The notes beneath the pieces were generated by a model that was given only the letters and a program-made list of their open reading frames with translations, did not search any database and had not been told where the DNA came from. A stretch of 38,282 nt of DNA from a virus: positions 1-38,282 of IMG/VR virus record IMGVR_UViG_3300029660_000072; one strand, written 5' to 3'. The position numbers were made by a program, and so were the translations under genes. Below, piece after piece: positions 100-33,484 of the stretch; positions within the stretch are counted from its first letter, which is position 1, and each line of letters begins with the position of its first letter.

Positions 100-426
100 A
101 GCCTGCTCGACACCTTGCTTGTTTTGAGTAAAGGACCAGCCGAACACTACTTGAAATTTGAAAACAAAATTCGTAATTGTCCATTACTGGTGCTCGATGA
201 TTTTGGGGCGGAATACGACAATAAATGGGTCGGCAATAAAGTCGATGCCATTATATCTGATAGGGTAGAACGTGGCAGAGCTACTATTATTACAACCAAC
301 TTGAATGTAAAGCAGATAAAAGACGGATATGACAGCCGTATTTATGACCGCTTGAAGTCCACATCGTTTCTGCTGCAGTTTAAGGGTAAGTCAAAACGTG
401 ATCCGTTAGAAATTAGCGAAATTTAA
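1..426 (+). CDS. DnaC/IstB-like AAA+ helicase loader, 3' portion (gene begins at 37878 or 37929 and runs through the window junction)
   Basis: Walker A GPVGTGKT, Walker B LLVLDDFG, sensor ATIITTN. The frame is continuous with 37878..38282. Confidence 0.85.
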   Translation, partial: LMGPVGTGKTSLAISILRTAINQGYNGYLISMISLLDTLLVLSKGPAEHYLKFENKIRNCPLLVLDDFGAEYDNKWVGNKVDAIISDRVERGRATIITTNLNVKQIKDGYDSRIYDRLKSTSFLLQFKGKSKRDPLEISEI

Positions 427-556
427 AATTTTGAGTTATACGGCTACTTTTAATTCCTAACTATAAAATACTCATTGCGAATATTAGAAGTACCGTATCG
501 CTCCGAATTCATATCTTAAATTAAAAAATAATGTTCGAATATACGGAGATAAAAAC

Positions 557-802
557 ATGAAAATTGAAGTTACAATAAATGATCCTAAAAATGTGAAATT
601 AAAAATCGAAGGTGAGCCGTTTTGTAACACCCATGAATTAGACGCTTGCGTAGCCTTATGGGGTGCAGCTTTATCCTTATATCATGGGTTAGATAGCGAT
701 ACCGAAAAAGGTGTTGCAAGAGTTATGGCGTTAAAAGCTATTGCAGAAATGTTAGGAACTGACAAAGATAACGAAAGGGGGTGCAAGTGCTGCAATGAAT
801 AG
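557..802 (+). CDS. Hypothetical protein (81 aa, C-terminal CKCC)
   Basis: ATG preceded by GGAG; fits + strand gene packing; no recognisable motif. Confidence 0.5.
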   Translation: MKIEVTINDPKNVKLKIEGEPFCNTHELDACVALWGAALSLYHGLDSDTEKGVARVMALKAIAEMLGTDKDNERGCKCCNE

Positions 803-1208
803 CCTTGTAATATATGGCCGACCAACGACAAAGAAAAATAGTTCGAGGGTTGTAATGGCTGGTCGATATCCTCGTGTCTTACCATCAAAAGCATTCACTG
901 AATATCAAAAGTTAGCGTTACAACAGTTGCAGTTTTACCGAAAACGTTTCTATGTTGCAGGGCCAGTCCATGTCCGGTGCCGCTATTACATGCCGGATAA
1001 AAGATCTTGGCCAGACTTGGTCGGCCTATTACAAGCGACTAGCGACATCTTAACCGATGCGAGAATTATCGACGACGATAAATGGATAGTACACTACGAT
1101 GGCTCGTGTATTGCCGGAGTTGATAAGAGTTCGCCGAGGGTTGAAATAGACATAATTCCGATAACTGAGGGAACTCCGTTACATGATTTAAAACGTAAGG
1201 GGACATAA
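795..1208 (+). CDS. rusA: RusA-like Holliday junction resolvase
   Basis: Size of about 137 aa. It shows YMPDKR..DL and IIDDDKWI acidic motifs arranged as in RusA-family endonucleases, and sits downstream of the replication genes. Confidence 0.6.
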   Translation: MNSLVIYGRPTTKKNSSRVVMAGRYPRVLPSKAFTEYQKLALQQLQFYRKRFYVAGPVHVRCRYYMPDKRSWPDLVGLLQATSDILTDARIIDDDKWIVHYDGSCIAGVDKSSPRVEIDIIPITEGTPLHDLKRKGT

Positions 1209-1321
1209 TGGAACTGATTATATTTATAGCCGGTGCATTGTTAGGTTGTGCAGTTGGTGTATCTATGATGTGCATATGTATTTGGTCCAGTGAATTGTCA
1301 AAAAAGGAGGGTGAAAAATGA
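1208..1321 (+). CDS. Small hydrophobic protein (37 aa, one predicted TM segment)
   Basis: ATG overlaps the rusA-like stop (TAATG) and its stop overlaps the next start (ATGA). Sequence is MELIIFIAGALLGCAVGVSMMCICIW. It is below the ORF-track length cut-off. Confidence 0.35.
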   Translation: MELIIFIAGALLGCAVGVSMMCICIWSSELSKKEGEK

Positions 1322-1695
1322 ATAATATTCCTTACTTTTTGGCTCATTTGCCTATTTGGAAAGCTAGCCATAAAGACAAAGTTAAGGTAACAAAACGTGT
1401 TAGGGAACACCAGTTTGATACTGTTGATAAAAAGACGAATGATATTGTTGTAAAAAAATGTCCTATATGTGGCATTAAATATCGTGTATCTTACCGGTTA
1501 AGAAATGTCAAAAAGACATGTAGTCCGTCGTGTAGTCAAAAACTACGTAATAGAACGTTAAAGCCTACCGACTGGGTAGAGGACGCTATTAAAATGCGAC
1601 AAGATGGCATGATTTTATCTGATATTGCATTAAGAGTTAATCGCTCAACAAGTACTGTATGGAAACAATTAAAAATGAATGGGGTCGACAAATGA
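1318..1695 (+). CDS. Zinc-ribbon plus C-terminal HTH DNA-binding protein
   Basis: CPICG...CSPSC cysteine pairs, then ILSDIALRVNRSTSTVWKQL helix-turn-helix-like segment. Confidence 0.55.
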   Translation: MNNIPYFLAHLPIWKASHKDKVKVTKRVREHQFDTVDKKTNDIVVKKCPICGIKYRVSYRLRNVKKTCSPSCSQKLRNRTLKPTDWVEDAIKMRQDGMILSDIALRVNRSTSTVWKQLKMNGVDK

Positions 1696-2138
1696 ATAGA
1701 AATGAAAATGAATTCGAACAAGTAACAGGTTATCATGACGCAATAATGCCAACACGTAAGACAGAATTTTCTGCCGGCTATGATCTGGCATGTTATCATT
1801 CCGGAAGTGTTAAACCGGGCGAAGTGAAACTCCTAGAAACTGGTGTTAAGTGTAAAATTAACCCAGATGAATACCTACAACTGCACTTGCGTTCTAGTGT
1901 AGGCATTAAAAATAGTGTAATGCTAGCCAATGGCACTGGCATTATCGATGCTGATTACTATAACAATGAAACTAACGAGGGCCATATCATGATACCTATT
2001 CGAAATATTGGCACTACACCTTTTGAATATAAGGCAGGCGATAACTTGGCTCAGCTTGTATTTATGCCTTATCGTGTTACAAGCCGTGATAATGCAACTG
2101 AAAAACGTACAGGTGGTTTTGGTAGCACTAATAAATAG
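1692..2138 (+). CDS. dut: dUTP diphosphatase (trimeric dUTPase)
   Basis: Motifs AGYDL, RSS, GIIDADY and C-terminal RTGGFGST. The ATG at 1692 overlaps the preceding stop. Confidence 0.9.
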   Translation: MNRNENEFEQVTGYHDAIMPTRKTEFSAGYDLACYHSGSVKPGEVKLLETGVKCKINPDEYLQLHLRSSVGIKNSVMLANGTGIIDADYYNNETNEGHIMIPIRNIGTTPFEYKAGDNLAQLVFMPYRVTSRDNATEKRTGGFGSTNK

Positions 2139-2147
2139 GGGGTAAAC

Positions 2148-2354
2148 ATGGATAAAAAGTCGTTAGGTTATATTATAGGCAATATGGGCGAAAATGATGT
2201 TCTCGATATAGTTGACGAGGAAAACGGCAACCACTATAAGATTGATACTGCTACATATCATCAGGACTTCAAGCAAAATAAAAATGTGGTTACGTTTTAT
2301 ATAAAGGTGGACAAAGAATGGAAGAAACTAGGAACCTTACAATCGAAGAAATAA
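2148..2354 (+). CDS. Hypothetical protein (68 aa)
   Basis: GGGGG RBS and ATG; no motif recognised. Confidence 0.5.
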   Translation: MDKKSLGYIIGNMGENDVLDIVDEENGNHYKIDTATYHQDFKQNKNVVTFYIKVDKEWKKLGTLQSKK

Positions 2355-2836
2355 TCAAAATTGCTAGTGAGACAGCCATTGAAAAGTATAAACAAATGGA
2401 GGCTGACAAGTGCGAGCAAGAAAGAGAAAAAGCTAGAAAGAACACTAAAAGACTTCTGAAAGGTTACAAGGAACTCAAAGAACATTGCGAGCATGCGGTC
2501 GCTAGTGTAGAGAATAGCGTTCCTAGTGATCTACAAATAGTACTCAATGAAGTGTTTAATCGCCGAGGACTGTTAAGAGTTGAGGCTATAGCAGCAAGTA
2601 AGAGGCGAACTGAATTGATTATAGAACATATCGATGCTATGTTGGCAGTGTATAAAACTCAATGTGAGCATAGGGAAGTGCCATATTTTGAGATTTTAAT
2701 CGATTTTTATGTCAATTCTGTACCTGTCGAAGATATAGCTATTTCAAAAAACGTTTCTGAAAGAACTGTTTACAACTATCTTGAAAGGGCAGAAAAGGAC
2801 GTAAGCATACTACTTTGGGGAGTTCAAGCAGCTTAA
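2318..2836 (+). CDS. ArpU/RinA-like late transcription regulator (sigma-region-4-like C-terminus)
   Basis: Last gene before the packaging operon. Its C-terminal ISKNVSERTVYNYLERAEKDV HTH is typical of the ArpU family in Firmicute phages. Confidence 0.65.
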   Translation: MEETRNLTIEEIIKIASETAIEKYKQMEADKCEQEREKARKNTKRLLKGYKELKEHCEHAVASVENSVPSDLQIVLNEVFNRRGLLRVEAIAASKRRTELIIEHIDAMLAVYKTQCEHREVPYFEILIDFYVNSVPVEDIAISKNVSERTVYNYLERAEKDVSILLWGVQAA

Positions 2837-2888: not shown

Positions 2889-2981
2889 ATTAGTGTCGAA
2901 AAATGTTCATTCTCCTAGGCATTTCAAATCACTCTTTTCGACGACACGCATATACTGAACATTTAACTACCTACGAAAAAG

Positions 2982-3026
2982 GCTCAGACGTACGGATTTC
3001 TCTCCCTGTATGTCTGAGCTTTTTTT
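2982..3026 (+). terminator. Strong rho-independent terminator between the late regulator and the late operon
   Basis: GCTCAGACGTACGG / CTGTATGTCTGAGC stem (about 14 bp with two G-U pairs), followed by seven T. Confidence 0.8.
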
Positions 3027-3047
3027 GTTATGTAATGAGGGCACAAA

Positions 3048-3239
3048 ATGACAACAATAAAATGTAAGGCATTACAGTGCCTTAATAACAGGAAAGGCAA
3101 GTGCATGGCAAACTTTATCGTCATAGATAAATATTGTCGTGCTTTTTTTACGTCCAGTAATGCGAGCCGTTATGAGGGGTGCATAATGAAAAAGGAGCAT
3201 AATCGGTATAAGAGTAGCAAAAGGAGTGTTCTCAAATGA
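3048..3239 (+). CDS. Small Cys-rich protein, DUF1540-like
   Basis: IKCKALQCLNNRKGKCMANFIVI matches the V.C....C.yN..g.C.A..I.I pattern that I recall for DUF1540. Confidence 0.45.
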   Translation: MTTIKCKALQCLNNRKGKCMANFIVIDKYCRAFFTSSNASRYEGCIMKKEHNRYKSSKRSVLK

Positions 3240-3760
3240 ATATAGTCGAACTGGCTTTAAGTGATATAAAGCCATATGAAAATAACCCTCGCTATAATGA
3301 TGAGGCTGCAACGTATGTTGCTGTAAGTATCGACCGTTTTGGGTTTAAAATTCCAATTATAGTTGATAAAGATTACGTTATCATTGCAGGGCATACTCGT
3401 TATAAGGCTGCACATATTTTGGGGCTTGTTACAGTTCCATGTATCATTGCAGATGATCTTGACGAAAAACAAGTAAAAGCATATCGAATTGCAGACAATC
3501 GCATGGCTGAGTTGAGTGAATGGAACTTTGACAAATACAATGAAGAAGTTCAAAAAATGCTTAATAGTGGCATGCTTGATGATATTGAACTATTCGACCT
3601 TTTCTGTAAAGAAGAAGACATCAGTCCGGATATGTTCGACTTGGGTGCGTTAGGTGTATATCGATTGACTATTGAAACCGATATCGATGAAGATATAGAG
3701 AAAATAAAAGAAATTGCATCTAAATATGAGGGCACGGAGGTCAAAGTAAATGGACATTAA
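3236..3760 (+). CDS. ParB/Srx-fold (ParB N-terminal nuclease-like) domain protein 1
   Basis: IKPYENNPRYND ... IIAGHTRYKAA ... RIADN motifs are typical of ParBc domains. Confidence 0.75.
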   Translation: MNIVELALSDIKPYENNPRYNDEAATYVAVSIDRFGFKIPIIVDKDYVIIAGHTRYKAAHILGLVTVPCIIADDLDEKQVKAYRIADNRMAELSEWNFDKYNEEVQKMLNSGMLDDIELFDLFCKEEDISPDMFDLGALGVYRLTIETDIDEDIEKIKEIASKYEGTEVKVNGH

Positions 3761-4295
3761 AATATTGGACATTAATTTTATTAAGCCCTACGAAAATAAC
3801 CCTCGTAATCATGATAAAAATATTGAGGAACTAGCGGAGAGCATTAAAACGTTCGGCTTTAAAAACCCTATTCTAATTAATTCCGATAATGTTATTATTG
3901 CAGGTCATGGTCGTTATGCTGCAGCTAAAAAGTTAGGACTTAAAGAGGTACCTTGCATTTATGCCGATGATCTTAATGAGGAAGATTGCAATTTATTTAG
4001 AATTGTCGAAAATGAGGCTAGTGCAAAAGCCAACTGGGACATTGATAAATTAATTGAAGAAATTAACGACTGCGATGATGTATTCACTGGCTTTAAATAC
4101 AAAGAGTTGGAGGCATTAGGCGAAAAACTTGTCGAGGAGGCAAAGGCCATTAACGAAAGTTTAGACGAGAAGTTAAAAGAAAAAGCAAAATATAAAATAA
4201 CTGTTGTAGTTAATCAACATGAAATATCTAAGGAATTATACGACAAGATAAAAGAGGGAATTTCAGAAAGTGCTACAATCAAAACAAATTATTGA
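3750..4295 (+). CDS. ParB/Srx-fold domain protein 2 (tandem paralogue) with acidic coiled C-terminus
   Basis: IKPYENNPRNHD ... IIAGHGRYAAA ... is clearly paralogous to the preceding ORF. Confidence 0.75.
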   Translation: MDIKILDINFIKPYENNPRNHDKNIEELAESIKTFGFKNPILINSDNVIIAGHGRYAAAKKLGLKEVPCIYADDLNEEDCNLFRIVENEASAKANWDIDKLIEEINDCDDVFTGFKYKELEALGEKLVEEAKAINESLDEKLKEKAKYKITVVVNQHEISKELYDKIKEGISESATIKTNY

Positions 4296-5205
4296 AAAAG
4301 ATACGACTATCTATGTCATAACACATGGTAGGCCAAACCCTAAAGACAGACCAACAACATGGTGGTTAGAGGAGGCAGGCCTACCTTTTAAGTTTGTTAT
4401 GAATGAAAAGCAAGTTGATAGCTATTTAAGGGCAGGCGTAAGTGAAAGCCAAATCGTCTCCGTATCAGATGAATGGGAGGACGAATACTTTGAAAAGCAT
4501 AAAACGTACCCTGTACCATTTCATGGTGCTATCTGCAATCGCCAAATGTGTTTAGAGGACGCCAAAAAGAATGGCAAAAAATATGCTTACCAATTAGACG
4601 ATAACATTGTGATCTTTGGTGCAGGCAAAGTCCACACTACTGGCAAGACCAAAGAATATTATGCTAGAAACATATTACCTAAAGTGTTTGAGCATTTATA
4701 TCGTATGTGTGAATGTACGAACATAGGATATATGGGTATTGTATTAGGTGCTACACCTACCGTAGAAAAGAAAATTTTAAGAAATGGCTATGCTTACAGT
4801 TGCTTTATTGAAAATGTAGAGGCTGACATAAAGTGGCGAGGTCCATTCGATGATGATGTACTTCATAATTTAGACTTCAATCATAGTGGTACATATACGA
4901 ATGCAGTATTAAGTGCTTACCATTACACAAAGGAAAGCAAAAGCAATACTGGCATGCGTGCTGCATATGATAAATGGGGACATATTCGACCTATTGCAAC
5001 AAGTCAGATATATCCGGACCATGTTCAATGTGGCCTTGCAACAAAATCTAATGGGCAGCATATGAGGTTCTATCACAAATTAAAGCCACCTCATAGAAAC
5101 GTTAGAATTAAAGATGAGGTCGCTTTTAAAGAGCTGATACATGATATACGAGAAACACAGTTACAATGGATAAAATACAATAAGGAGGTGCGAAACAGTG
5201 GCTAA
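4270..5205 (+). CDS. Soluble 311-aa protein, possible GT-A-fold nucleotide-sugar glycosyltransferase (function uncertain)
   Basis: GTG start 11 nt after GAGGG. It has an N-terminal beta-strand/loop TIYVITHGRPN, a DXD-like YQLDDNIV about 95 residues later, and a second acidic cluster PFDDDV. No TM segment. Confidence 0.45.
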   Translation: MLQSKQIIEKDTTIYVITHGRPNPKDRPTTWWLEEAGLPFKFVMNEKQVDSYLRAGVSESQIVSVSDEWEDEYFEKHKTYPVPFHGAICNRQMCLEDAKKNGKKYAYQLDDNIVIFGAGKVHTTGKTKEYYARNILPKVFEHLYRMCECTNIGYMGIVLGATPTVEKKILRNGYAYSCFIENVEADIKWRGPFDDDVLHNLDFNHSGTYTNAVLSAYHYTKESKSNTGMRAAYDKWGHIRPIATSQIYPDHVQCGLATKSNGQHMRFYHKLKPPHRNVRIKDEVAFKELIHDIRETQLQWIKYNKEVRNSG

Positions 5206-5575
5206 AATGGGTCGGCCAAGGGCTGAAATAGACAAGAAAGAGTTCGAGGGCTTATGTGGTTTACAATGCACCTACGAAGAGGTGTGCGACTGGTTTGGGG
5301 TTACTCAAAAGACTTTGAACGCATGGTGTAGACGAACGTATGGGAAAACTTTCTCCCATGTTTTTCGTGAAAAGAGGGGCAAAGGCAAGATAAGTTTACG
5401 CCGTATGCAATGGCAACTTGCAGAAAAGTCTCCGGCTATGGCAATCTTTTTAGGCAAAAACTTCCTAGGGCAGTCAGATAAGACAGAAATGGAAGTCAAT
5501 ACAACTGTTCAAAGCAACCCACTTGACGGTGTTACAACTGAGGAACTCAAAAAGCTAATAGACAAAGAGGGGTGA
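5198..5575 (+). CDS. terS: Terminase small subunit (HTH type)
   Basis: GTG start 9 nt after GGAGG. It carries an N-terminal HTH (CTYEEVCDWFGVTQKTLNAW) and lies immediately upstream of terL. Confidence 0.65.
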   Translation: MAKMGRPRAEIDKKEFEGLCGLQCTYEEVCDWFGVTQKTLNAWCRRTYGKTFSHVFREKRGKGKISLRRMQWQLAEKSPAMAIFLGKNFLGQSDKTEMEVNTTVQSNPLDGVTTEELKKLIDKEG

Positions 5576-5579
5576 GGCT

Positions 5580-6992
5580 ATGAAACTCACACCGGAACTC
5601 ATGCAGCAATTCAAATATGAATTAGCAAGGCGTGAGTTTTTTTATTATTGCCATTTACAAGCACCGGACTTTTACAGGAAAGATAGAGATTACCTCGTAG
5701 AATTGTGCAATACGTTGCAAGAGTTCTACGAAGATCCAGATGCAAAAGTCTTAATCATTAACATGCCACCTCGACATGGTAAAAGCCGTACAGCTCAGAT
5801 GGCAGCCAAATGGATATTAGGCAAGAACCCTGTAGAAAAGATTATGACTGGTTCGTATAATGCGACTCTATCAACTACCTTTGCGAAGAATGTTCGTAAT
5901 GATATTCAAGAAGTAAAGGCAGACGAGAGCAGAGTTGTATATACTGACATATTCCCTAACGTACGTATTAAACGTGGCGATGCCTCTATGGATATGTGGT
6001 CGTTAGAGGGCGGTTATAACAGTTATCTAGCTACGTCTCCAAGTGGTACCGCTACAGGTTTTGGTGCTACTATCTTAATCATTGATGATATTATCAAGAA
6101 TGCAGAAGAGGCTTACAACGAAAATACTAAGGCTAAGCACTGGGACTGGTTCACCAACACTATGCTTTCTCGTTTAGAGGAGGGCGGAAAGATTATTATT
6201 ATCATGACTCGTTGGGCATCTGATGATCTAGCCGGTAGGGCAATAGAACACTTTGGAGATAAAGCAAAGGTTATTACCATGAAAGCCTTGCAAGACGATG
6301 GCACTATGTTGTGTGATGATGTGTTGTCGTATGAAAGCTACAAAGAAAAGTGCAGGGCTATGGGTGAGGATATAGCCAGTGCAAACTACCAGCAAATACC
6401 TATTGACTTAAAAGGTTGCCTATATTCAAATCTTAAAACGTATGAACATATTCCGACTGGTGCCGATGGTAGTCCTTTATTTACTCAAATAAAAAACTAT
6501 ACCGATACTGCTGATACTGGCGAAGACTGGTTGGCAAGTATTACTTACGGAATATATGACAAAGAGGCGTACATACTCGATGTGGTCTATTCTAAGGCTA
6601 GCATGGAATATACAGAGCCTGCCGTAGCTGAAATGCTGCACCGTAACCGTGTTAATATTGCAGATTTTGAAAGCAATAATGGTGGTCGTGGCTTTGCTCG
6701 ACAGGTTACAAGGATATTAAAGGAAGAATACAACAGCAATTATACAAAGGTTGTATCGTTCCACCAATCTAAGAATAAGGAGGCTCGCATATTATCCAAT
6801 GCGACATGGGTTATGGAACATATTTACTTTCCTATAAATTGGGCTGACAGATGGCCTGAATTTTATAAAGCTATCACACGTTATCAACGTGAGGGCAAGA
6901 ACGAACATGACGATGCTCCGGATGCATTAACTGGCGTTGCTGAGAAATTAACAGCACCAGATTATAAAGCAACAAGGACTAACATTTATTAG
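5580..6992 (+). CDS. terL: Terminase large subunit
   Basis: Walker A-like PPRHGKS, Walker B ILIIDDI, and a C-terminal nuclease-domain acidic motif (HDDAPDAL); 470 aa. Confidence 0.85.
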   Translation: MKLTPELMQQFKYELARREFFYYCHLQAPDFYRKDRDYLVELCNTLQEFYEDPDAKVLIINMPPRHGKSRTAQMAAKWILGKNPVEKIMTGSYNATLSTTFAKNVRNDIQEVKADESRVVYTDIFPNVRIKRGDASMDMWSLEGGYNSYLATSPSGTATGFGATILIIDDIIKNAEEAYNENTKAKHWDWFTNTMLSRLEEGGKIIIIMTRWASDDLAGRAIEHFGDKAKVITMKALQDDGTMLCDDVLSYESYKEKCRAMGEDIASANYQQIPIDLKGCLYSNLKTYEHIPTGADGSPLFTQIKNYTDTADTGEDWLASITYGIYDKEAYILDVVYSKASMEYTEPAVAEMLHRNRVNIADFESNNGGRGFARQVTRILKEEYNSNYTKVVSFHQSKNKEARILSNATWVMEHIYFPINWADRWPEFYKAITRYQREGKNEHDDAPDALTGVAEKLTAPDYKATRTNIY

Positions 6993-7004
6993 GAGGCTTA
7001 TTAC

Positions 7005-8408
7005 ATGGCTATATTAACCAATGCTCGTAATGACGAATATGAGTTATTGCATGATGCCTATTATGGCACAGGTATGTTTGCAGCTGGTGGTGCATTACAA
7101 AAGCACCCTAGGGAAAATGCTGCAAATTATACCTTTAGACAACAACTATCTTATTACCTAAATCATACTGCACCTATCATCAATGCGTGTGTAGATCCGA
7201 TATTTAAAGATACTATTTCACGTAATTACAATGAAAGCGAATTATTCGAAACATTTCTTAATGATGTAGACCGATTAGGCACTACACTTCAAGAATTTAT
7301 GCGTTACAACTCTACGCAAGCCAAAATCTATGGCGTTATGTATGTATTGGTCGATAATGTATCTGAAATAGGGGAAACAGTAGCCGACCAAGTGAATAAT
7401 AGGCAGTTGCCTTATTTGGTTGCTATTGAGCCAAAAAGCGTATATAAATGGCTTACAAATGACATTGGCGAACTTGAATTTTTTGCTTATACATCTACAG
7501 TCTTTGATGATGAGGGGCAAACCAAAACCCAGTATCATGAATGGACACGAACATCTTGGACATTAAAGAATGATGAGCAAAAAATCATCGCTACTGGTGA
7601 ACATAACCTCGGTAAGGTTCCTATCGTTCAATGGTTTAGTCGCTCATCTCGTAAGATTGATATTCTACCTCCGCCAGAATACTTGGCTATCGCTAAGACA
7701 AATCATCAAGTGTATCACCTATGCTCGTTATTAACTCAAATACTTAATATGCAGACTTTTAGCACATTGACATTACCTGACAATGGGCAAGGTGCGGACG
7801 ATATTACATTAGGTACAAATAATGTGTTGATGTATCCGGCGGAAAGTAGTCATGCACCAGCTTTTATTGCTCCAGATAGAGGACCGGCAGAAATTATTAT
7901 GGCAGTAATTAAAATGCTCGTTGATGATATGTATCGCCTATCCGGAATTAATTCAGTAATAGGTGTACAAGAGGCCAAAAGCGGTGTGGCTAAGCAATGG
8001 GACTTCGAACGTACAAACCAACGCTTGGCAGATTTCTCCGTACAGTGTGAAAGTGCGGAAAAGGACATTATTGAATTGTTTGAACTATGGACGAATATGA
8101 ATGTCGATTATAAATGCGACTATCCTCGTGAATTCAAAATTAATGATATTACAGATAGCCTTGCACAATCTCAGGCCGTGTTAGATCTTGGCCTAGGCAG
8201 CAACACCCTTAAAGTTGAAACAGGTAAAAAGGTATTGGACAGCTACATGCCAAACATTGAGCCTGAAACATTTGATGAAATTGTTGCCGAAATTGAAGAA
8301 AGTGTTCAACGGCAGGAGCAAGACGAAACATATCATAATAATAATGATGAAGTAGAGGACGGTGCGGAAGATGAGAACGCAACGAGAGATAAACAAGGCA
8401 ATAGATAG
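7005..8408 (+). CDS. Portal protein
   Basis: 467 aa, directly after terL and before the MuF-like gene, with an acidic C-terminal tail. The call rests on position and size. Confidence 0.75.
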   Translation: MAILTNARNDEYELLHDAYYGTGMFAAGGALQKHPRENAANYTFRQQLSYYLNHTAPIINACVDPIFKDTISRNYNESELFETFLNDVDRLGTTLQEFMRYNSTQAKIYGVMYVLVDNVSEIGETVADQVNNRQLPYLVAIEPKSVYKWLTNDIGELEFFAYTSTVFDDEGQTKTQYHEWTRTSWTLKNDEQKIIATGEHNLGKVPIVQWFSRSSRKIDILPPPEYLAIAKTNHQVYHLCSLLTQILNMQTFSTLTLPDNGQGADDITLGTNNVLMYPAESSHAPAFIAPDRGPAEIIMAVIKMLVDDMYRLSGINSVIGVQEAKSGVAKQWDFERTNQRLADFSVQCESAEKDIIELFELWTNMNVDYKCDYPREFKINDITDSLAQSQAVLDLGLGSNTLKVETGKKVLDSYMPNIEPETFDEIVAEIEESVQRQEQDETYHNNNDEVEDGAEDENATRDKQGNR

Positions 8409-9462
8409 TTTTGAGCAAGAAGTCAAAGCACAGCTAGCACTTGGGCTTAAACCTAATGAGGCCGTTAGAAAGGCTTATGCAAAATATCCTGTAATGGATA
8501 TGATGAAAGCTACGTTGCAAGCAGAATTAGTTAATACTTTTATGGCAGGGTATGGCGATAATGTTCCATACTCCGCTAAAAGTATTTCACAGGCCATGTC
8601 TGAAAGTTGGGCCAGTGATGATCTTACACTCTCTAAACGTTTATATAGACGGTCAAGCACTATACGTAATGAAGTAGCTGACACTATAAAACAAGCGTTA
8701 AAGACAAATAAAACTGTAAAAGGGTTAGCAAAGTCAATCTTTGACGGCTATGGTAAAGGTGGTATTATCCCAGAGGCTAGCATACCGAAGTTCCTACACA
8801 AGCTATCTGATATAAATATAAGTGGTGAGGCTACCCCAGAGGCTAAACGTAAGCAACGTGAGTTATTACGTAGCGTTAAAGGGAAAATAGCAAGGCTCGA
8901 TACTCCTTATGTTAGGGCCGCATATAATGAAGTAGCTGCAGCCGTTGATGATGGCAACGAAGTTAGATTACAAAAAGCTATCTATACAGCCACACAAGAA
9001 AAAGCACGTTATCATGCTGAGCGTATAGCACGAACAGAAAATGCTAGGGCTTATGCTGACGGCCAAATGAACAGATATTTAGACGATGAGGACGTGGTCG
9101 CTTTTCAATGGAAGTTATCCGCTAATCATCCAAGATATGACATATGCGACTTTTATGCTAATGCTGATTTATACGGACTTGGCAAAGGTGTATACCCTAA
9201 AGACAAGTTCCCTAACCTGCCAGCACATCCGCATTGTATGTGTCATATTAAGCCAATGACTGAGCTCGATATTGATATTAATAAAAGACATAATAACCTT
9301 GAACAGTCAGGACTAGAATATATCAAATCTTTATCTAAGCAACATCAAGAAGTGTTGCTCGGCGTGAATGGTCGTGAACAGGTATTAACTGGCAAAGCTA
9401 ACTGGCAAGATACGGCTAGAGGGTGGACGTCAGAAGTCTATGAGGCTAGAAAACCAAAATAA
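8371..9462 (+). CDS. Head morphogenesis protein, Mu F / SPP1 gp7 family
   Basis: ERIARTENARAYADGQ motif and a C-terminal CxC/H cluster. An alternative GTG start lies at 8362. Confidence 0.8.
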   Translation: MRTQREINKAIDSFEQEVKAQLALGLKPNEAVRKAYAKYPVMDMMKATLQAELVNTFMAGYGDNVPYSAKSISQAMSESWASDDLTLSKRLYRRSSTIRNEVADTIKQALKTNKTVKGLAKSIFDGYGKGGIIPEASIPKFLHKLSDINISGEATPEAKRKQRELLRSVKGKIARLDTPYVRAAYNEVAAAVDDGNEVRLQKAIYTATQEKARYHAERIARTENARAYADGQMNRYLDDEDVVAFQWKLSANHPRYDICDFYANADLYGLGKGVYPKDKFPNLPAHPHCMCHIKPMTELDIDINKRHNNLEQSGLEYIKSLSKQHQEVLLGVNGREQVLTGKANWQDTARGWTSEVYEARKPK

Positions 9463-9576: not shown

Positions 9577-10191
9577 ATGAACATCGCAGAAGTTTATCAA
9601 GCACTCGAACAGTTGGAGAACGGTCAAGATCTTATCACCGCTATTAAGGGGGAGACGTCTCGTCTTAATAATGAGGCTAAGACAACACGTGAAAAACTAC
9701 AACAACAAATCACGGAATTAACCGGTGAACGTGATACGTTAACCAATCGTGTTACCGAATTGGAGCAGTCGGCAGGGGCCAATACTGGTTCTAATTCTCC
9801 AGAGTATAAACAGCTCGAAAAGCAATTAAAAGCTATGAGTGAAAAGTTCGAACTTGCTGAAACTAAGGCAAAAGAGGCTGAGACAAAGCGTATTCAATCT
9901 GAGATTATGGCACAGACACTTGATGCCTTTACTAAGGCAAATGCGGTAGATCCGCAAGAGTTTGCAAGATTGGTTGCCAATGACATCAAAGTACAAGACG
10001 ATGGCACTTATGGCTATTTAAAAGAGGACGGCACAGTCGGAACTATCCAAGACCGTACCAATGAATGGCTACAAGGCAAAGCATGGGCAGTAAAGTCTAC
10101 TGGCAATACTGGTAGTGGACAAGGTGGCACAGGTAGCGGTGGCGATACAGTCTTGAATGAATTAGCAGCAGCCGTAGGTGTAAAACTTTAA
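9577..10191 (+). CDS. Scaffolding protein (coiled coil)
   Basis: Heptad-rich, charged sequence immediately upstream of the capsid gene, with a Gly-rich tail. Confidence 0.65.
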   Translation: MNIAEVYQALEQLENGQDLITAIKGETSRLNNEAKTTREKLQQQITELTGERDTLTNRVTELEQSAGANTGSNSPEYKQLEKQLKAMSEKFELAETKAKEAETKRIQSEIMAQTLDAFTKANAVDPQEFARLVANDIKVQDDGTYGYLKEDGTVGTIQDRTNEWLQGKAWAVKSTGNTGSGQGGTGSGGDTVLNELAAAVGVKL

Positions 10192-10217
10192 TTATTTAAT
10201 AATGGAGGTCATTAACA

Positions 10218-11138
10218 ATGGCAATTAACACACTTCAATATTCTCAACAGTTCCAAACTGTACTTGACGCTCAAATGTTGGCAAGTGCAACTTCCGCTTT
10301 TATGGAGGCTAATGCAGGCCAAGTCAAATATGACGGTGGCGATACTGTACATATTCCTGAAATTTCTATGCAAGGTCTTGCAAAGTATGACCGTGATGAG
10401 GGGTTCAACCAAGGTTCCGTTACTTTGAAATTTAACCCTTACAAAATGACTCAAGACCGTGGTCGTACATTCCAACTCGACTCTATGGACGTTAACGAAA
10501 CTAACTTCGTTGCAACTGCCGGCACTGTAATGGGCGAATTCCAACGTACACAAGTTATTCCGGAAATTGACTCCTATCGTTATTCTAAAATTGCTGCGTT
10601 AGCAACTGCAGAAAATAAGGTTACTACTGGCTTTACTCCAGCCGTTGCCACTATCTTGGAAAAGTTAGAGGCCGAAATCACTGATATTCAAGACGTAGTA
10701 GGCGAGGACGAGGGCTTAATTATCGTTATGTCCACTAAATTGCGTACTATCTTGAATAATGCAGATAAATTCAATCGTTATTTGAATGTTGCCGAATTCA
10801 AAAATGGCTCCGTAAATACTAAAGTTAAATCTTTCAATGATATTCCTATTTTGGGTGTACCATCTGCACGTATGAAAACTGCTTACGTATTCAATGACGG
10901 TAAAACAGCTAATCAACAAGCCGGTGGCTTTAAAGCTGATACAGGTGCGAAAGACATTAACTGGATCATCATGCCACAACGTGCACCTATTGCAGTATCT
11001 AAAACAGACAAAGTGCGTGTATTCACTCCTGACATTAACCAAAAGGCTGATGCATGGAAAATCGACTACCGTAAATATCATGACTTGTGGATTCCTAAAA
11101 ACCGCTTTGCCGCAATTCGTGTTAATACTGGTGCATAA
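10218..11138 (+). CDS. Major capsid protein
   Basis: 306 aa, strongly CGT/ACT-biased (highly expressed) codon use, positioned after the scaffold gene. Confidence 0.75.
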   Translation: MAINTLQYSQQFQTVLDAQMLASATSAFMEANAGQVKYDGGDTVHIPEISMQGLAKYDRDEGFNQGSVTLKFNPYKMTQDRGRTFQLDSMDVNETNFVATAGTVMGEFQRTQVIPEIDSYRYSKIAALATAENKVTTGFTPAVATILEKLEAEITDIQDVVGEDEGLIIVMSTKLRTILNNADKFNRYLNVAEFKNGSVNTKVKSFNDIPILGVPSARMKTAYVFNDGKTANQQAGGFKADTGAKDINWIIMPQRAPIAVSKTDKVRVFTPDINQKADAWKIDYRKYHDLWIPKNRFAAIRVNTGA

Positions 11139-11155
11139 TTAAGGGGTGTTTATAA

Positions 11156-11332
11156 ATGACAAGACTTGTACGCATGAACGAAGTTCAATATGTAGAAACT
11201 GAGTTTGATATTGAACGCTTACAGTCCGAGGGCTTTGCAGTTGAGGAGTTGGAGGAAACAGAACCAACTGACGATACTGAGGACACAGAAGAAAAGCCAA
11301 AACGTGGTGGCCGTAAGAAAGCTGAGGCGTAA
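11156..11332 (+). CDS. Small acidic protein with basic tail (58 aa)
   Basis: AAGGGG RBS and ATG at 11156. It fills the gap between capsid and connector genes and is below the ORF-track cut-off. Confidence 0.45.
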   Translation: MTRLVRMNEVQYVETEFDIERLQSEGFAVEELEETEPTDDTEDTEEKPKRGGRKKAEA

Positions 11333-11334
11333 TC

Positions 11335-11811
11335 ATGTTACCTGCTGAGGTGTTCGAGCGACGGTTGAGACAGGCCGTTAAATCGAGCACCTTTATGGTG
11401 CAAGATGAGGCACAAGCAAGACATAACTTTATATCTAGGACATCTCAATTAGAACGTGCGATTGATACACGGTTCGACTTTGATAATGGCAATAATGTTG
11501 GGGTTGTATATCTTGATGATAGGGCTGCACCTTATGGGGTGTTTGTCCATGAGGGTACACGACCTCATATTATTCGTCCTAAGACAAAAAGCGTTTTGCG
11601 ATGGGCACCTATGGCCGGTAATGGTTTTATATTTTCGAAAGTGGTTCACCATCCAGGCACTAAATCTGATCCATTTCTATATGACGCTATTAATCGTAAG
11701 CGTGGCGATGTATATGCTACATTCGCAAAGGCTACGAACATGGCACTTGAAGATATAAGCGAAAGTGATTGGCTAGGAAAGGCAGACCATGAAATTAAAA
11801 TTCGATTATAG
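11335..11811 (+). CDS. HK97 gp10-like head-tail/tail-completion protein
   Basis: YGVFVHEGT...PFLYDAI resembles the y..~vE.GT...PFl signature of the HK97 gp10 family. Confidence 0.6.
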   Translation: MLPAEVFERRLRQAVKSSTFMVQDEAQARHNFISRTSQLERAIDTRFDFDNGNNVGVVYLDDRAAPYGVFVHEGTRPHIIRPKTKSVLRWAPMAGNGFIFSKVVHHPGTKSDPFLYDAINRKRGDVYATFAKATNMALEDISESDWLGKADHEIKIRL

Positions 11812-11819
11812 GGGGCTCA

Positions 11820-12200
11820 ATGTTATACGACTACACGGAAATGCAGTTCACCGATGAGCTATTAGGCAAAGAGGTACTGCCACAACATGTCGAACGTGCC
11901 GAGCAAGGTTTATACGCATTCGCTAAACGGTTGGGAGTTCCACAGAATGATGTTATTAGGGGCTATCTAGCAGACGAGCTAGTACAACTATATACATATC
12001 GTTTCGTATGCTTTGACAAGGCTTATGCGTTGCCTGGTGCTTACACTAGGGACGGTTCGACAGATGATTTCTACAGTAAGAAATTACTGTATCTCGATGA
12101 ACGCATTAAAATTTTAGAAAAGCAGATAACTCCGGAAGATTTAACAGGCGATGCGAAGAAATATGCTCGTTATCGTACCGTTGAAATATACAGGGGGTAG
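11820..12200 (+). CDS. Head-tail connector protein (positional)
   Basis: 126 aa ORF in the connector region. Confidence 0.5.
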   Translation: MLYDYTEMQFTDELLGKEVLPQHVERAEQGLYAFAKRLGVPQNDVIRGYLADELVQLYTYRFVCFDKAYALPGAYTRDGSTDDFYSKKLLYLDERIKILEKQITPEDLTGDAKKYARYRTVEIYRG

Positions 12201-25093: not shown

Positions 25094-25540
25094 ATGTATG
25101 AGAAAATCACGAAGTACATCAAAGCAGTTAAATCTCAAATTACTGTTAAGCGGTTTATTCTTATTTGTGGTTGTGTGTTGCTCCTCATTGGTGCATGCCA
25201 ACTCATTGACGGCTACTTCACCGCAAGAGGAAACTATCAACGTGCCATTGACAAGTTGGAACGAACTCAAAGGGAACTTGATACAAGCAGACGCCTTAAT
25301 CAAGAGCTCAAACTTGTCATTGAACGAAGCTCAGACCTTAACCGTCAAGCAGGCGACCGAATTGAACGAATTGAAGATTATCAACGAAGAACGGAGCAAG
25401 GAATTGGCCGAGCTCAAAACTATCAACAAGAAACAGGAAAAAGAGTTAGCGAAAGCATCGGAACTAACAGCCAAGCAAGCGAACTCATTGGACGCAGCTT
25501 ACGCATCATCGAACGAGTTGAAAGCGGAAATAAAGAATAA
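25094..25540 (+). CDS. i-spanin-like ORF (N-terminal TM segment plus charged coiled-coil-like region); coding status uncertain
   Basis: 148 codons open; ATG 6 nt after GGGGG. A TM-like FILICGCVLLLIGAC segment is present. It overlaps 25098..25631 completely in another frame. Confidence 0.4.
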   Translation: MYEKITKYIKAVKSQITVKRFILICGCVLLLIGACQLIDGYFTARGNYQRAIDKLERTQRELDTSRRLNQELKLVIERSSDLNRQAGDRIERIEDYQRRTEQGIGRAQNYQQETGKRVSESIGTNSQASELIGRSLRIIERVESGNKE

Positions 25541-25631
25541 TAAACGAACAGAACAAAGGTTACGCCGGCAACGTGATACATGGGCAATTAGTAATGCTGC
25601 ATTATTCCTTGCAGGTGTGTTGCGTAGATAG
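25098..25631 (+). CDS. Unimolecular-spanin-like ORF (N-terminal signal/lipobox-like segment, coiled coil, C-terminal hydrophobic anchor)
   Basis: 177 codons with a basic n-region, LLLSGLFLFVVVCC, heptad-like ELNELK/KELAELK repeats and a C-terminal AISNAALFLAGVLRR. Codon pattern looks natural, especially in the second half. Confidence 0.55.
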   Translation: MRKSRSTSKQLNLKLLLSGLFLFVVVCCSSLVHANSLTATSPQEETINVPLTSWNELKGNLIQADALIKSSNLSLNEAQTLTVKQATELNELKIINEERSKELAELKTINKKQEKELAKASELTAKQANSLDAAYASSNELKAEIKNNKRTEQRLRRQRDTWAISNAALFLAGVLRR

Positions 25632-30428: not shown

Positions 30429-30944
30429 ATGGCAACCAAGCATGCACTTATAAATAATTCTTATTCCGATGAGTGGTACACGCCATCCGATGTAGTACGA
30501 ACAATGCTCAAAGTATTCCCTCCTAAAATTGGAGACAGAATATTATTGCCATTTGATACCGCTGAAAGTGAGTTTACAAAGATCATTACTGCAGAATATG
30601 ACAAACATGCTATATGGGGTATACGAGATTTCTTAACTAAGCATTATGAGTTCGATTATCTCATTACCAACCCACCTTACAGCATAAAGGATAAAATCAT
30701 TGAACGTTGCATTGATCTTGGCAAGCCCAGTGTACTGTTATTGCCTATAGATACACTGGGGGGGGTACAAAGGCATAAATTATTCCACCGTACACGGATA
30801 GGCGTATATATACCTACTAAGCGAATTAAGTTTACAAATGTTGCAGGCGATAACTCTAAAACGCCTGCTTATCACAATATAGTTTTATTTTTAAATGCTG
30901 AACGAAATAGTATCAGCTTTGAGTACGAATATAAGGAGAATTAA
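30429..30944 (+). CDS. Compact orphan DNA N6-adenine methyltransferase (phage Dam-like)
   Basis: N-terminal DEWYTP motif, LLPFD, and the catalytic ITNPPYS (NPPY). No adjacent restriction gene. Confidence 0.7.
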   Translation: MATKHALINNSYSDEWYTPSDVVRTMLKVFPPKIGDRILLPFDTAESEFTKIITAEYDKHAIWGIRDFLTKHYEFDYLITNPPYSIKDKIIERCIDLGKPSVLLLPIDTLGGVQRHKLFHRTRIGVYIPTKRIKFTNVAGDNSKTPAYHNIVLFLNAERNSISFEYEYKEN

Positions 30945-30946
30945 CC

Positions 30947-31450
30947 ATGAATACATTCACAATCGAATTTAAAGGCCCTAAAGACTTGGCAAAAAAAATT
31001 GCTGAGTATAACGAACTTATGAACCCTAAAACTATTGAGGAGTTAGCGGTAAAAGTTGTAGAGGAGCCTAAACAAGAGGTAAAAGAGGAACCTAAAAAAG
31101 AAACTGCACCAAAAGTAGTTGAGGAAACTCAGCCAGAACCTGTTGAGGTGAAAGAAGAACCGACCGAGGAGGTTGCAGAAGTACCTGTAACAAACTTCGA
31201 GGGCGAGCCTGTAGAGGCTAAGGCGGAAGAAGTTGAGGAACCTGCAGAAAATGAATTAGACGTAGACACTGCGGAAATAGATCCGCAAGTCTACTGGAAC
31301 GACTTCAAAGACTGGCTTAAACATGTAGGTGCTGAGGGCGTGAAAGCTGCACTCGATGTGTTCCGTAATCATGGAGTTAACGGCAAGCCAAATTCCGGTG
31401 ATTTAACACCAGAAATTATGCAAGAACTTAATGCGTTAATGGGTAAATAA
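30947..31450 (+). CDS. Acidic protein with a PEVK-like disordered linker
   Basis: Repeated VVEEPK/EEPK/EVKEEP units sit between short N- and C-terminal folded-looking segments. Confidence 0.55.
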   Translation: MNTFTIEFKGPKDLAKKIAEYNELMNPKTIEELAVKVVEEPKQEVKEEPKKETAPKVVEETQPEPVEVKEEPTEEVAEVPVTNFEGEPVEAKAEEVEEPAENELDVDTAEIDPQVYWNDFKDWLKHVGAEGVKAALDVFRNHGVNGKPNSGDLTPEIMQELNALMGK

Positions 31451-33470: not shown

Positions 33471-33484
33471 GGAGAACATACGAT

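Follow-up and report, generated by a model that had tools for sequence, protein, structure and literature searches.

A glycosyltransferase (GT) of a DNA-type family and small ParB-fold proteins were found to form a conserved cassette in phages. The window analyzed here, the whole 38,282-nt stretch of IMGVR_UViG_3300029660_000072 (38.2 kb), carries this cassette in a genome with no recognisable enzyme for making the usual acceptor of DNA glycosylation, and such a dioxygenase-less combination of ParB and GT has not been described before. A first-pass annotation made from the letters of the DNA had proposed a candidate DNA-modification module with unusual acceptor chemistry. On comparative and structural analysis this proposal is considerably strengthened, because the ParB-GT pairing is conserved and probably co-evolving, a natural fusion of ParB with the GT family exists, ParBs of the same kind stand before DNA methylases, and phage ParB-like proteins have been published as activators of dioxygenases (PMC13229309). 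We regard it as an even call that the cassette is a ParB-assisted DNA glycosyltransferase whose acceptor is not phage-made 5hmC or 5hmU.

The window represents a temperate phage genome, which a 99-nt overlap between its two ends shows to be complete and circular. When 25 kb of the window were compared with GenBank phages by megablast, no near relative emerged, and six prophage relatives were detected among 185,579 species genomes, all of them distant and all in Actinomycetota. A late-gene regulator with a sigma-70 region-4-like HTH (Sigma70_r4_2 at 9e-5, below the gathering score) lies upstream of the 400-nt leader that precedes the ParB/GT module. The terminator suspected within this leader proved to be real, being a hairpin of -32.7 kcal/mol (z -9.3; 0 of 200 shuffles equally stable) followed by T7. 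It was missed by a simple terminator consensus scan, and the leader matched no Rfam family. The stop codon of a putative gene for a small, basic, Cys-rich protein overlaps the start of ParB-A (ATGA), and an ORF of 50-77 aa occupies the same position in most of the close relatives (L007-L016). The following reading frames overlap by 11 nt (ParB-A/ParB-B), 26 nt (ParB-B/GT, as first described) and 8 nt (GT/terS), and the GT begins with a GTG codon served by a good RBS (agaggga). Judging from this gene order, the ParB/GT module is the head of the late operon, with predicted translational coupling to terS (Table 1).

Table 1 Features of the window discussed in the text.
Feature	Position	Strand	Basis
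Late-gene regulator (context, outside the cassette)	2318..2836	+	PHROG 1558, 3e-38
Intrinsic-terminator hairpin, 23 bp then T7	2973..3028	+	RNA fold
Small Cys-rich basic ORF, 63 aa, putative gene	3048..3239	+	ORF list
ParB-A, 174 aa	3236..3760	+	Pfam ParB_N
ParB-B, 181 aa	3750..4295	+	Pfam ParB_N
TAGT-family GT, 311 aa	4270..5205	+	Pfam TAGT, GT-A fold
terS (context)	5198..5575	+	PHROG 309 and 606
terL (context)	5580..6992	+	PHROG 30251, 2e-222; Pfam terminase domains
ORF without annotation	25098..25631		
N6-adenine-MTase-like small protein	30429..30944		
ORF without annotation	30947..31450		

The 311-aa protein had been taken for a soluble GT-A glycosyltransferase from its motifs alone, and this guess was borne out by profile search, by structure prediction and by fold search. 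The protein matched Pfam TAGT (PF20691, TET-Associated Glycosyltransferase) with 58.2 bits (gathering score 27.5; E 1.4e-15), its residues 13-223 covering positions 2-199 of the 205-position model, and it matched PHROG 842, 'beta-glucosyl-HMC-alpha-glucosyltransferase', at 4e-17. PF20691 was present in all close homologues. While a sequence search against the PDB gave nothing meaningful, a fold search with the AF2 model (pLDDT 88.7, pTM 0.89) returned GT-A enzymes as all of its top PDB matches (GpgS, AvpGT, SunS/ThuS and ColGalT1; TM 0.43-0.45). In BFVD it returned TAGT proteins at TM 0.6-0.77, including a T6-type beta-glucosyl-HMC-alpha-glucosyltransferase (E 1e-9). Profile matches and the predicted structure thus confirmed a GT-A fold of the TAGT family, closest to phage TAGT proteins, rather than a non-transferase fold. 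The motif spacing was as described, with TIYVITHGRPN at residues 13-23, QLDDN 95 residues later at 108-112 and FDDD at 193-196 (GPFDDD, 191-196). Across 18 GT sequences, down to 30% identity, QLDDN, GPFDDD, H199 and KESKSNTGMR were invariant, including D110, D111, N112, D195 and D196. The protein is basic (pI 8.7) and contains no hydrophobic segment (maximum Kyte-Doolittle 19-residue window 0.88), and PADLOC found no defence-system match for it. Its clade is peripheral and rare: a search of 1.84 billion representatives gave 262 matches, of which 20 were below 1e-30.

The TAGT family was reportedly defined by Iyer et al. in 2013. Its members include the kinetoplastid base-J glucosyltransferase, the T2/T6 beta-glucosyl-HMC-alpha-glucosyltransferase and phage TET-associated GT-A enzymes (Pyle et al. 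2023/2024; PMC13390438), and the characterised members treated there and in bioRxiv 10.1101/2023.12.21.572611 all act on DNA. The window GT resembles them in its score above the gathering threshold, its predicted GT-A fold, its DXD-type motif and its phage origin. In contrast to them, its clade shows no association with TET/JBP, C5-MTase or ThyA-like enzymes, which leaves it without the usual acceptor. An N-terminal extension, present in 45 of the 148 TAGT family representatives examined, is absent from the window GT. The idea that such extensions (100-190 aa) of long canonical TAGTs are ParB domains was rejected as a general rule; Pfam detected ParB in 0 of 10 tested and a family-specific ParB profile in 2 of the 148 representatives.

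The two overlapping genes upstream of the GT encode paralogous ParB N-domain proteins, as had been claimed. Pfam ParB_N matched ParB-A with 37.2 and ParB-B with 43.6 bits (gathering score 26.3), and the two proteins share 50% identity over 106 aa (E 1e-33). The motifs are IKPYENNPRY and IIAGHTRYKAA in ParB-A, whose motif set is PYENNPR, GHTR and ADN, and IKPYENNPRN and IIAGHGRYAAA in ParB-B. In both, an acidic linker joins the ParB-CTPase-fold N-domain (approximately residues 1-95 in ParB-A) to a short C-terminal domain; neither protein has an HTH, and both are acidic (pI 4.45 and 4.87, respectively). ParB-A matched PHROG 620 at 3e-43, and both proteins matched the ParB part of MTase PHROG 498 (about 1e-35 to 1e-40) and the N-terminal region of PADLOC MTase_II (about 9e-21 to 1e-24). 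The first-pass annotation had held that phage ParB-like domains are usually fused to methyltransferases, which does not apply to this family: close homologues are mostly stand-alone, with PF01555 in 3 of 120 among the matches listed. Its statement that no methylase accompanies the ParBs stands for the two proteins, which end after the short C-terminal domain and contain no MTase domain by Pfam, PHROG or PADLOC, but not for the genome, which encodes an N6-adenine-MTase-like small protein elsewhere (Table 1).

A sequence search of the PDB with ParB-B matched CTP-binding ParB, Noc and KorB. In the AF2 model of ParB-B, the N-domain reached pLDDT 83-97, and Foldseek aligned the model with CTP-gamma-S-bound Myxococcus xanthus ParB (7bnr) at an rmsd of 2.2 Å over 99 columns, the alignment to ParB structures being confined to the N-domain (approximately residues 1-100). 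Together with the sequence matches, this bears out the proposed ParB/Srx fold. In an alignment of 36 homologues, R19, G52, H53, R55 and N88 were invariant and D/E87 nearly so. These residues align with QPR, GERR and EN of the PDB ParBs, with T or G in place of the first Arg of GERR. The residues of the anticipated CTP pocket are therefore conserved, and nucleotide binding is predicted for the family. Like the ParB/Noc/KorB CTP-dependent clamps, which their N-domain fold resembles at rmsd 2.2-2.7 Å and 25-36% identity, the window ParBs keep the Arg of (N/Q)PR, the Gly and last Arg of GERR in the equivalent GH(T/G)R, and the (D/E)N equivalent of ENLQR. Unlike these clamps, they are half the size and strongly acidic and have no HTH/parS-binding domain, no ParA partner and no Pfam-defined C-terminal dimerisation domain. 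Pfam detected neither HTH nor ParB-C domains in either protein, and the searches of the genome revealed no ParA-like gene. Lacking the parS-binding HTH, the C-terminal dimerisation domain and ParA, the two proteins are not canonical partition ParBs (ParABS). The ParB gene is duplicated in the window, as compared with the published 5mYOX/ParB pairs. Near-identical phages have a single recombinant ParB copy and most of the distant relatives have one copy, indicating that the second copy is not essential.

We compared 23 diverse loci with 30-74% GC, including those of cultured Gordonia and Microbacterium phages, by all-against-all clustering. The only families common to the loci were GT (23/23) and ParB (22/23), the next being TerL (7/23). 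ParB lay directly upstream of the GT, usually overlapping it, from the lowest to the highest GC content, and adjacency in 22 of 23 diverse loci places the arrangement far beyond chance. Distances among the GTs and among the ParBs co-varied strongly (Mantel r 0.92; none of 5000 permutations as high), also within the high-GC loci (r 0.64; 1/5000). One locus encodes a natural ParB-TAGT fusion of 515 aa (L061), and five loci have a stand-alone ParB whose end is separated by 4 nt from the canonical TAGT that follows it. The pI values were 4.4-5.4 for GT-adjacent ParB copies and mostly 8.4-9.2 for the GTs (6.6-6.7 in L005 and L034). Three large 'families' that co-occurred with ParB and GT in high-GC loci turned out to be antisense shadow ORFs over these genes and were set aside as artefacts. 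These comparisons of sequences indicate that the pairing is conserved and suggest that the two proteins co-evolve. Database records label such proteins 'ParB-like nuclease domain' or 'partition protein', and small stand-alone ParBs are far commoner than the GT (977 versus 262 matches), as would be expected if the ParBs were nucleases or left over from a partition system and the GT had arrived separately as a moron. Such unrelated neighbours are hardly credible, however, given adjacency across phyla with overlapping reading frames, the co-variation, the natural fusion and the lack of a detectable parA gene in the genome.

In the window and in a majority of the diverse loci, the module immediately precedes terS/terL (gene order by inspection). 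This position, the overlap of the GT with terS and the role of ParBs as DNA-loading clamps in partition systems (PMC12704722) would fit a packaging accessory, in which the ParBs load the terminase, or else tag or arrange the pac region, and the GT is structural or regulatory. We consider this very improbable, since the cassette is found together with terminases and portals of at least three unrelated types and the ParBs have no HTH or parS-binding domain. In Microbacterium phage Gingerbug, ParB and GT stand by themselves as two genes on the strand opposite to their neighbours, and the terminase, counted across the genome ends, is about 5 kb away. In Lactococcus phage KSY1, the GT lies beside the DNA polymerase and not next to the terminase, and no ParB was detected within about 6 kb of it. 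These two phages speak against the pac-site role that had been put forward as an alternative. In addition, the invariant DXD site of the glycosyltransferase argues for catalysis, and the pre-terminase slot also houses DNA methylases. A C5 DNA methylase is preceded by a member of the same small acidic ParB family in one locus (L050), and a ParB-MTase fusion follows the GT in another (L021).

To our knowledge, the known sugar modifications of DNA depend on a hydroxy(methyl)pyrimidine that is first made by a dioxygenase or a thymidylate-synthase-like enzyme, and the known DNA glycosylations all use 5hmC, 5hmU, 5-hydroxycytosine or a sugar already on one of these. Among the ORFs of at least 125 aa in the complete genome, no TET/JBP, ThyA-like hydroxymethylase or C5-MTase was found at Pfam/PHROG sensitivity, which upholds the earlier statement that hydroxymethylase and TET are missing, at a level that leaves room for a very divergent oxygenase. 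No TET/JBP or other source of hydroxy(methyl)pyrimidine was found among the conserved neighbours in the 23 loci, and bulk Pfam scans of the neighbours of distant loci revealed no TET/JBP among the top 25 families listed. At canonical TAGT loci (n = 80), the frequent neighbours were sugar-nucleotide enzymes, terminase and DNA polymerase, not TET. Because the complete genome has no recognisable enzyme that forms a hydroxymethyl-pyrimidine, the acceptor is probably not phage-made 5hmC or 5hmU, and the lack of an enzyme for the attachment point leaves either a new type of DNA glycosylation or a target other than DNA.

The first step could also be hidden, with the GT glycosylating 5hmU or 5hmC that is made by a divergent oxygenase or hydroxymethylase or supplied by the host. 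Membership of the TAGT family is in keeping with this, several ORFs of the window are without annotation (for example two in Table 1), and phage-specific 5mYOX profiles match thousands of contigs that have no Pfam TET/JBP annotation (O'Toole et al., PMC13229309). Nevertheless, we judge this explanation improbable. The unannotated non-structural ORFs do not exceed 177 aa, which is small for a 5mYOX, and no third gene family accompanies ParB and GT in the 23 loci. The 39.7-kb genome of Gingerbug, in which the pair stands isolated, has no TET/JBP, ThyA or C5-MTase annotation, and the searches of the complete genome and of the distant neighbourhoods described above point in the same direction.

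As for a target other than DNA, the GT might modify a virion, terminase or host protein, an envelope polymer, a nucleotide or a small molecule, with the ParBs as NTP-dependent regulators or adaptors. A gene for UDP-galactopyranose mutase (GLF) overlaps the 3' end of the GT in two loci (L001 and L002), and cell-wall glycans typically contain galactofuranose. Among solved structures, those closest in fold belong to enzymes whose substrates are small molecules, peptides and proteins; sulfiredoxin and a serine kinase, which are non-DNA enzymes, share the ParB/Srx fold; and the window ParBs are acidic and without a DNA-binding domain. In the view of Pyle et al., a DNA-modifying role is less likely for GTs without 5mYOX or ThyS beside them, and in 65% of phage GT contigs a base-modification neighbour is missing. 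We nonetheless regard such a target as rather unlikely. By sequence and structure, the nearest relatives of the GT are DNA-acting TAGTs (TM 0.6-0.77, against 0.43-0.45 for the PDB enzymes), and the ParB subfamily is the one that is fused or adjacent to DNA methylases. Furthermore, the GT has no membrane segment, and its gene sits in the late operon, unlike a gene for lysogenic conversion.

Phage ParB-like proteins that consist of an NBD and a CTD and have no DNA-binding domain activate 5mYOX thymine dioxygenases on dsDNA, and these 5mYOX/ParB pairs are often near GTs and terminases (O'Toole et al., PNAS 2026, PMC13229309). Going by the published description, the window resembles these pairs in having a small ParB with an N-domain, a C-terminal domain and no DNA-binding domain beside a candidate DNA-modifying enzyme. 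In contrast to these pairs, the partner of the window ParBs is the GT itself, no 5mYOX was found in the complete genome, and the dependence of the GT on ParB is one that we infer. The window ParBs also resemble the fusions of ParB with N6/N4 methyltransferases (PF02195 and PF01555; Kaljevic et al. 2025, PMC12704722) in their profile, their location before the terminase and their coupling to a catalytic module, whereas the catalytic module of the window is a separate gene and a glycosyltransferase instead of a SAM methyltransferase. Such fusions bind CTP, ATP or GTP (PMC12704722). In bacterial 7-deazaguanine DNA modification, the ParB-like NTPase DpdB is needed for the action of DpdA on DNA; the chemistry of DpdA is a transglycosylase base exchange, unlike that of a GT.

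Under the ParB-assisted DNA glycosyltransferase that we favour, the cassette would be a self-contained, late-expressed system of two components, namely a basic soluble GT and one or two small acidic ParBs that serve as its obligate partner. With replication over and packaging about to begin, the GT would take a sugar from a nucleotide-sugar and attach it to phage DNA. The donor would probably be a UDP-hexose, or UDP-galactofuranose in the lineage that has added its own mutase. The involvement of a sugar donor is in keeping with this mutase gene at the 3' end of the GT and with the many nucleotide-sugar enzymes encoded at canonical TAGT loci. ParB may work as a homodimer or, if there are two copies of the gene, as a heterodimer of A and B, and would bind and activate the GT so that it can act on duplex DNA, as published for the ParB-dependent thymine dioxygenases of phages. 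The purpose may be to shield virion DNA from host nucleases. Since the ParBs are acidic and have no DNA-binding domain, their contact with DNA is itself something that we infer. For the acceptor, the exocyclic amine of a canonical base would be the most obvious candidate, an amine of adenine or cytosine being the same kind of target as that of the N6/N4 methylases otherwise fused to the ParB family. In the strongest form of the proposal, which we hold possible but would not count on, ParB and GT are a two-component system complete in itself, which glycosylates DNA with no preceding hydroxymethylation step and places the sugar directly on a canonical group such as this amine.

The cultured SEA-PHAGES isolates Lilbeanie (a Gordonia phage), Gingerbug, DelaGarza and Lesiram carry the cassette, which makes the proposal directly testable; our literature search found no DNA-modification data for cultured phages with the cassette. 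The cassette is widespread though rare, and minimal, tying a DNA-type GT to a ParB-fold partner in complete genomes without a recognisable first-step enzyme. If the DNA is not modified, a TAGT annotation would be an unreliable indication of 'DNA glycosylation', and the ParB fold would gain a new non-DNA partner. If it is modified, the acceptor chemistry would be new and a single enzyme would suffice to glycosylate DNA, with bearing on the resistance of phages to restriction and CRISPR and on DNA-labelling tools, and direct glycosylation of a canonical group would be a type of DNA modification new to description. The role of the ParB fold as an activator would then extend from dioxygenases to glycosyltransferases and, judging by gene adjacency, to C5 methylases.

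Positions 38184-38282 of the window are identical to positions 1-99, and since this 99-nt terminal repeat is an assembler overlap, the window represents a contig that is complete and circular, with 38,183 bp of unique sequence and a DnaC/IstB-like gene crossing the circular junction. Its gene content comprises an integrase, a CI-type repressor, RecT, DnaD/DnaC-like replication proteins, RusA, dUTPase and a siphovirus-type structural module. In the structural module, the MuF-like protein gave no toxin-domain match in the PHROG scan; in the close relative L051 the MuF-like head protein bears an Ntox50 toxin domain, and in L011-L013 a 520-aa ORF occupies the same position. Ahead of RecT and an MBL-fold protein, the early region encodes a PcfJ-like protein and, downstream of it, an SMC/LmuB-like ABC-type ATPase (PADLOC LmuB, 5e-17); the pair may be a module for recombination or anti-defence.

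Three co-directional, overlapping ORFs on the plus strand at 3236-5205, each with a good ribosome-binding site, encode two small ParB N-domain proteins, ParB-A and ParB-B, and a putative glycosyltransferase (GT). This arrangement, picked out by the first-pass annotation as a candidate DNA-targeting or DNA-modification module, was confirmed, and all the motifs quoted there were found in the three ORFs with the spacing claimed. A hairpin in the leader, overlooked by a consensus terminator scan and picked up by RNA folding, has the appearance of a strong intrinsic terminator that may work in both directions, and the late genes would therefore depend on antitermination or on a promoter within 3029-3235. 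The small ORF that precedes ParB-A may be a fourth, lineage-specific operon member; most close relatives (L007-L016) have an ORF of 50-77 aa at the same place.

Features of the window and of the comparison loci
Record	Feature	Position	Size	Remarks
Window	Late regulator gene	2318..2836		400-nt leader between regulator and module
Window	Hairpin in leader	2973-3028		Perfect 23-bp stem, A-run before, T-run after; -32.7 kcal/mol, z -9.3
Window	Small Cys-rich basic ORF	3048-3239	63 aa	ATGA overlap with ParB-A start
Window	ParB-A	3236..3760	174 aa	
Window	ParB-B	3750..4295	181 aa	11-nt overlap with ParB-A
Window	GT	4270..5205	311 aa	GTG start; overlaps ParB-B by 26 nt and terS by 8 nt
Window	Small terminase gene (terS)	5198..5575		
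Window	MuF-like protein	8362..9462	366 aa	
Window	N6-adenine-type methylase-like gene	30429..30944	171 aa	EWYTP and NPPY motifs
Window	PcfJ-like and SMC/LmuB-like proteins	31824-35389	548 aa; 634 aa	
L001	UDP-galactopyranose mutase (GLF)	10885-12003		5e-68
L003	Protein directly after GT	10920-11879	319 aa	
L046 (KSY1)	gp094; gp097	5983-6948; 9860-10768		
L050	ParB homologue and C5 cytosine DNA methylase (PF00145)	225-1760		Pre-terminase position
L051	Locus of single recombinant ParB	10001-11456		
L051	MuF-like head protein	14610-16193	527 aa	
L061	ParB-TAGT fusion	6105-7652	515 aa	

The first-pass annotation had guessed a GT-A glycosyltransferase from motif layout, and the guess was borne out at the levels of family and fold. 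GT scores 58.2 bits against Pfam TAGT (PF20691; cutoff 27.5) and also matches PHROG 842, 'beta-glucosyl-HMC-alpha-glucosyltransferase'. Its AlphaFold model is confident (pLDDT 88.7, pTM 0.89), and the top matches in a PDB fold search were all GT-A nucleotide-sugar transferases, at TM-scores of only ~0.45; among predicted viral structures the best matches were TAGT-domain proteins (TM up to 0.77), and a T6-type beta-glucosyl-HMC-alpha-glucosyltransferase was also among them. QLDDN, GPFDDD, H199 and the KESKSNTGMR block are invariant in 18 homologues with identity down to 30%. GT is a basic (pI 8.7), soluble TAGT-family protein of GT-A fold with catalytic-type conservation.

ParB-A and ParB-B both pass Pfam ParB_N (37.2 and 43.6 bits; cutoff 26.3) and share 50% identity across the first 106 residues, beyond which they diverge. 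Their best matches are to the ParB part of phage ParB-methyltransferase profiles (PHROG 498 at 1e-36 and 1e-40; PADLOC MTase_II at 1e-21 and 1e-24). The N-domain of the ParB-B AlphaFold model is confident and superposes at 2.2-2.7 A on CTP-gamma-S-bound Myxococcus ParB, Noc and KorB; since nothing past residue ~100 matches ParB structures, ParB-B has no HTH. A 36-sequence family alignment showed conservation of the nucleotide-pocket motif positions, namely the R of (N)PR, G52, H53 and R55 of GH(T/G)R, and D/E87-N88. Both proteins are strongly acidic (pI 4.45 and 4.87), and they are not partition ParBs. The GT-adjacent ParBs form one family, separate from a second, 'GNHT' type of ParB that is fused to methylases, and duplication to two copies arose at least twice. 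Some near-identical phages (P0175 and P0177 as ParB homologues; loci L051 and L052) carry a single ParB with the N-terminus of ParB-A and the remainder of ParB-B, followed by the same GT, terS and terL. The tandem paralogues evidently collapse through homologous recombination, and the existence of these single-copy relatives indicates that a second copy is not required, as would fit either a homodimer or a heterodimer.

Members of the GT clade are rare. A word index returned 19 homologues, 1.84 billion representative proteins gave 262 matches (20 below 1e-30), IMG/VR held 31 loci, and 185,579 species genomes contained six prophage loci, all in Actinomycetota. A ParB gene lies directly upstream of GT, mostly overlapping it, in virtually all loci, whose GC content spans 30% to 74% and whose terminases, portals and capsids belong to unrelated types. 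When all ORFs of 23 diverse loci, two of them complete genomes, were clustered all against all, the only common families were GT (23/23) and ParB (22/23), the next real family being the large terminase in 7 of the 23. Pairwise distances of GT and ParB co-vary (Mantel r 0.92, with 0/5000 permutations as high). These results demonstrate that ParB and GT are functionally tightly coupled; the two very probably work as a unit. Three further families that seemed to co-occur were rejected as antisense shadow ORFs. Long antisense ORFs over ParB/GT, where present in loci of 55-74% GC (L017-L047), cluster between loci and so mimic conserved gene families, a pitfall of neighbourhood analyses.

Cultured carriers include Gordonia phage Lilbeanie (gp88, gp89) and Microbacterium phages Gingerbug (gp60, gp59), DelaGarza and Lesiram, in which the pair is annotated as 'ParB-like' and 'hypothetical'; in Gingerbug the two genes form a unit by themselves, on the strand opposite to all their neighbours. 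Lactococcus phage KSY1 has a GT without a nearby ParB. Its gp094 is a distant TAGT-like GT, and gp097 too matches GT-A-like structures; their genes lie on either side of the DNA polymerase gene, and KSY1 DNA may therefore be glycosylated.

Further, independent evidence ties ParB to DNA-modifying enzymes. A natural single-chain ParB-TAGT fusion (L061) lies in a canonical TAGT locus (ParB E 1e-38, family profile; TAGT E 1e-42, Pfam), and in five further canonical TAGT loci a stand-alone ParB stops 4 nt ahead of the TAGT start. Stand-alone ParBs closely related to those of the window lie ahead of a further TAGT-like GT in L049, a 225-aa protein in L048 and, directly, the C5 cytosine DNA methylase in L050; a Pfam-identified large terminase directly follows the modules of L049 and L050. 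The L050 arrangement suggests that the small ParB serves DNA-modifying enzymes of several classes as a common adaptor. In L021 a ParB-N6/N4-methylase fusion lies downstream of GT. As for the sugar, the UDP-galactopyranose mutase gene overlaps the GT 3' end in L001 and L002, suggesting that galactofuranose is transferred in this low-GC lineage. The protein following GT in L003 matches T4 beta-glucosyltransferase weakly and below threshold (PF09198, E 1.2e-3) and may be a second DNA glycosyltransferase.

Known DNA sugar modifications are all built on 5hmC, 5hmU or 5-hydroxycytosine (bioRxiv 10.1101/2023.12.21.572611; PMC13390438; PMC13326640). Every ORF of at least 125 aa in the complete window was scanned against Pfam or PHROGs, and none encoded a recognisable TET/JBP dioxygenase, thymidylate-synthase-like hydroxymethylase or C5-methyltransferase, in agreement with the first-pass annotation for the first two. 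The window module is thus not a canonical TET-TAGT system, as the defining TET association was absent. Absent a hydroxymethyl source, it is conceivable, if doubtful, that GT directly glycosylates a canonical DNA group; a cryptic hydroxylating step that supplies the acceptor is very improbable. The sole methylase-like gene in the window is N6-adenine-type (PHROG 799 at 1.4e-24, with the profile only partly covered); a 167-aa protein (PHROG 35266) begins 3 nt after it.

TAGT membership, the company that the ParB family keeps with DNA enzymes, late expression just before packaging and the published precedent of 5mYOX, the phage 5-methylpyrimidine dioxygenase, all point to DNA as the reasonably likely target of the pair, which supports the original interpretation; a target other than DNA is rather improbable. 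A role in packaging or pac-site recognition, one alternative raised at first, is unlikely, because the ParBs have no DNA-binding domain and because the cassette occurs irrespective of terminase type and not always beside the terminase.

Phage ParB homologues made up of an NBD and a CTD, with no DNA-binding domain, were shown to be activators of their cognate thymine dioxygenases on dsDNA, and the genes most often found beside 5mYOX encode GTs, ParBs and terminases (O'Toole et al., PNAS 2026, PMC13229309). Of the phage GT contigs of Pyle et al., ~65% have neither 5mYOX nor ThyS, and those authors set them aside as less probable modifiers of DNA. A survey of the ParB-CTPase fold that takes in its fusions to methylases is given by Kaljevic et al. 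(PNAS 2025, PMC12704722); the word 'glycosyltransferase' is absent from their main text. Our literature search found no description of a dioxygenase-independent ParB-GT cassette and no DNA-modification data for the cultured carriers. The module is best filed under ParB-assisted phage DNA-modification systems, from whose 5mYOX/ParB form it differs in that the partner of ParB is the glycosyltransferase itself, and the cassette is readily testable in cultured phages.
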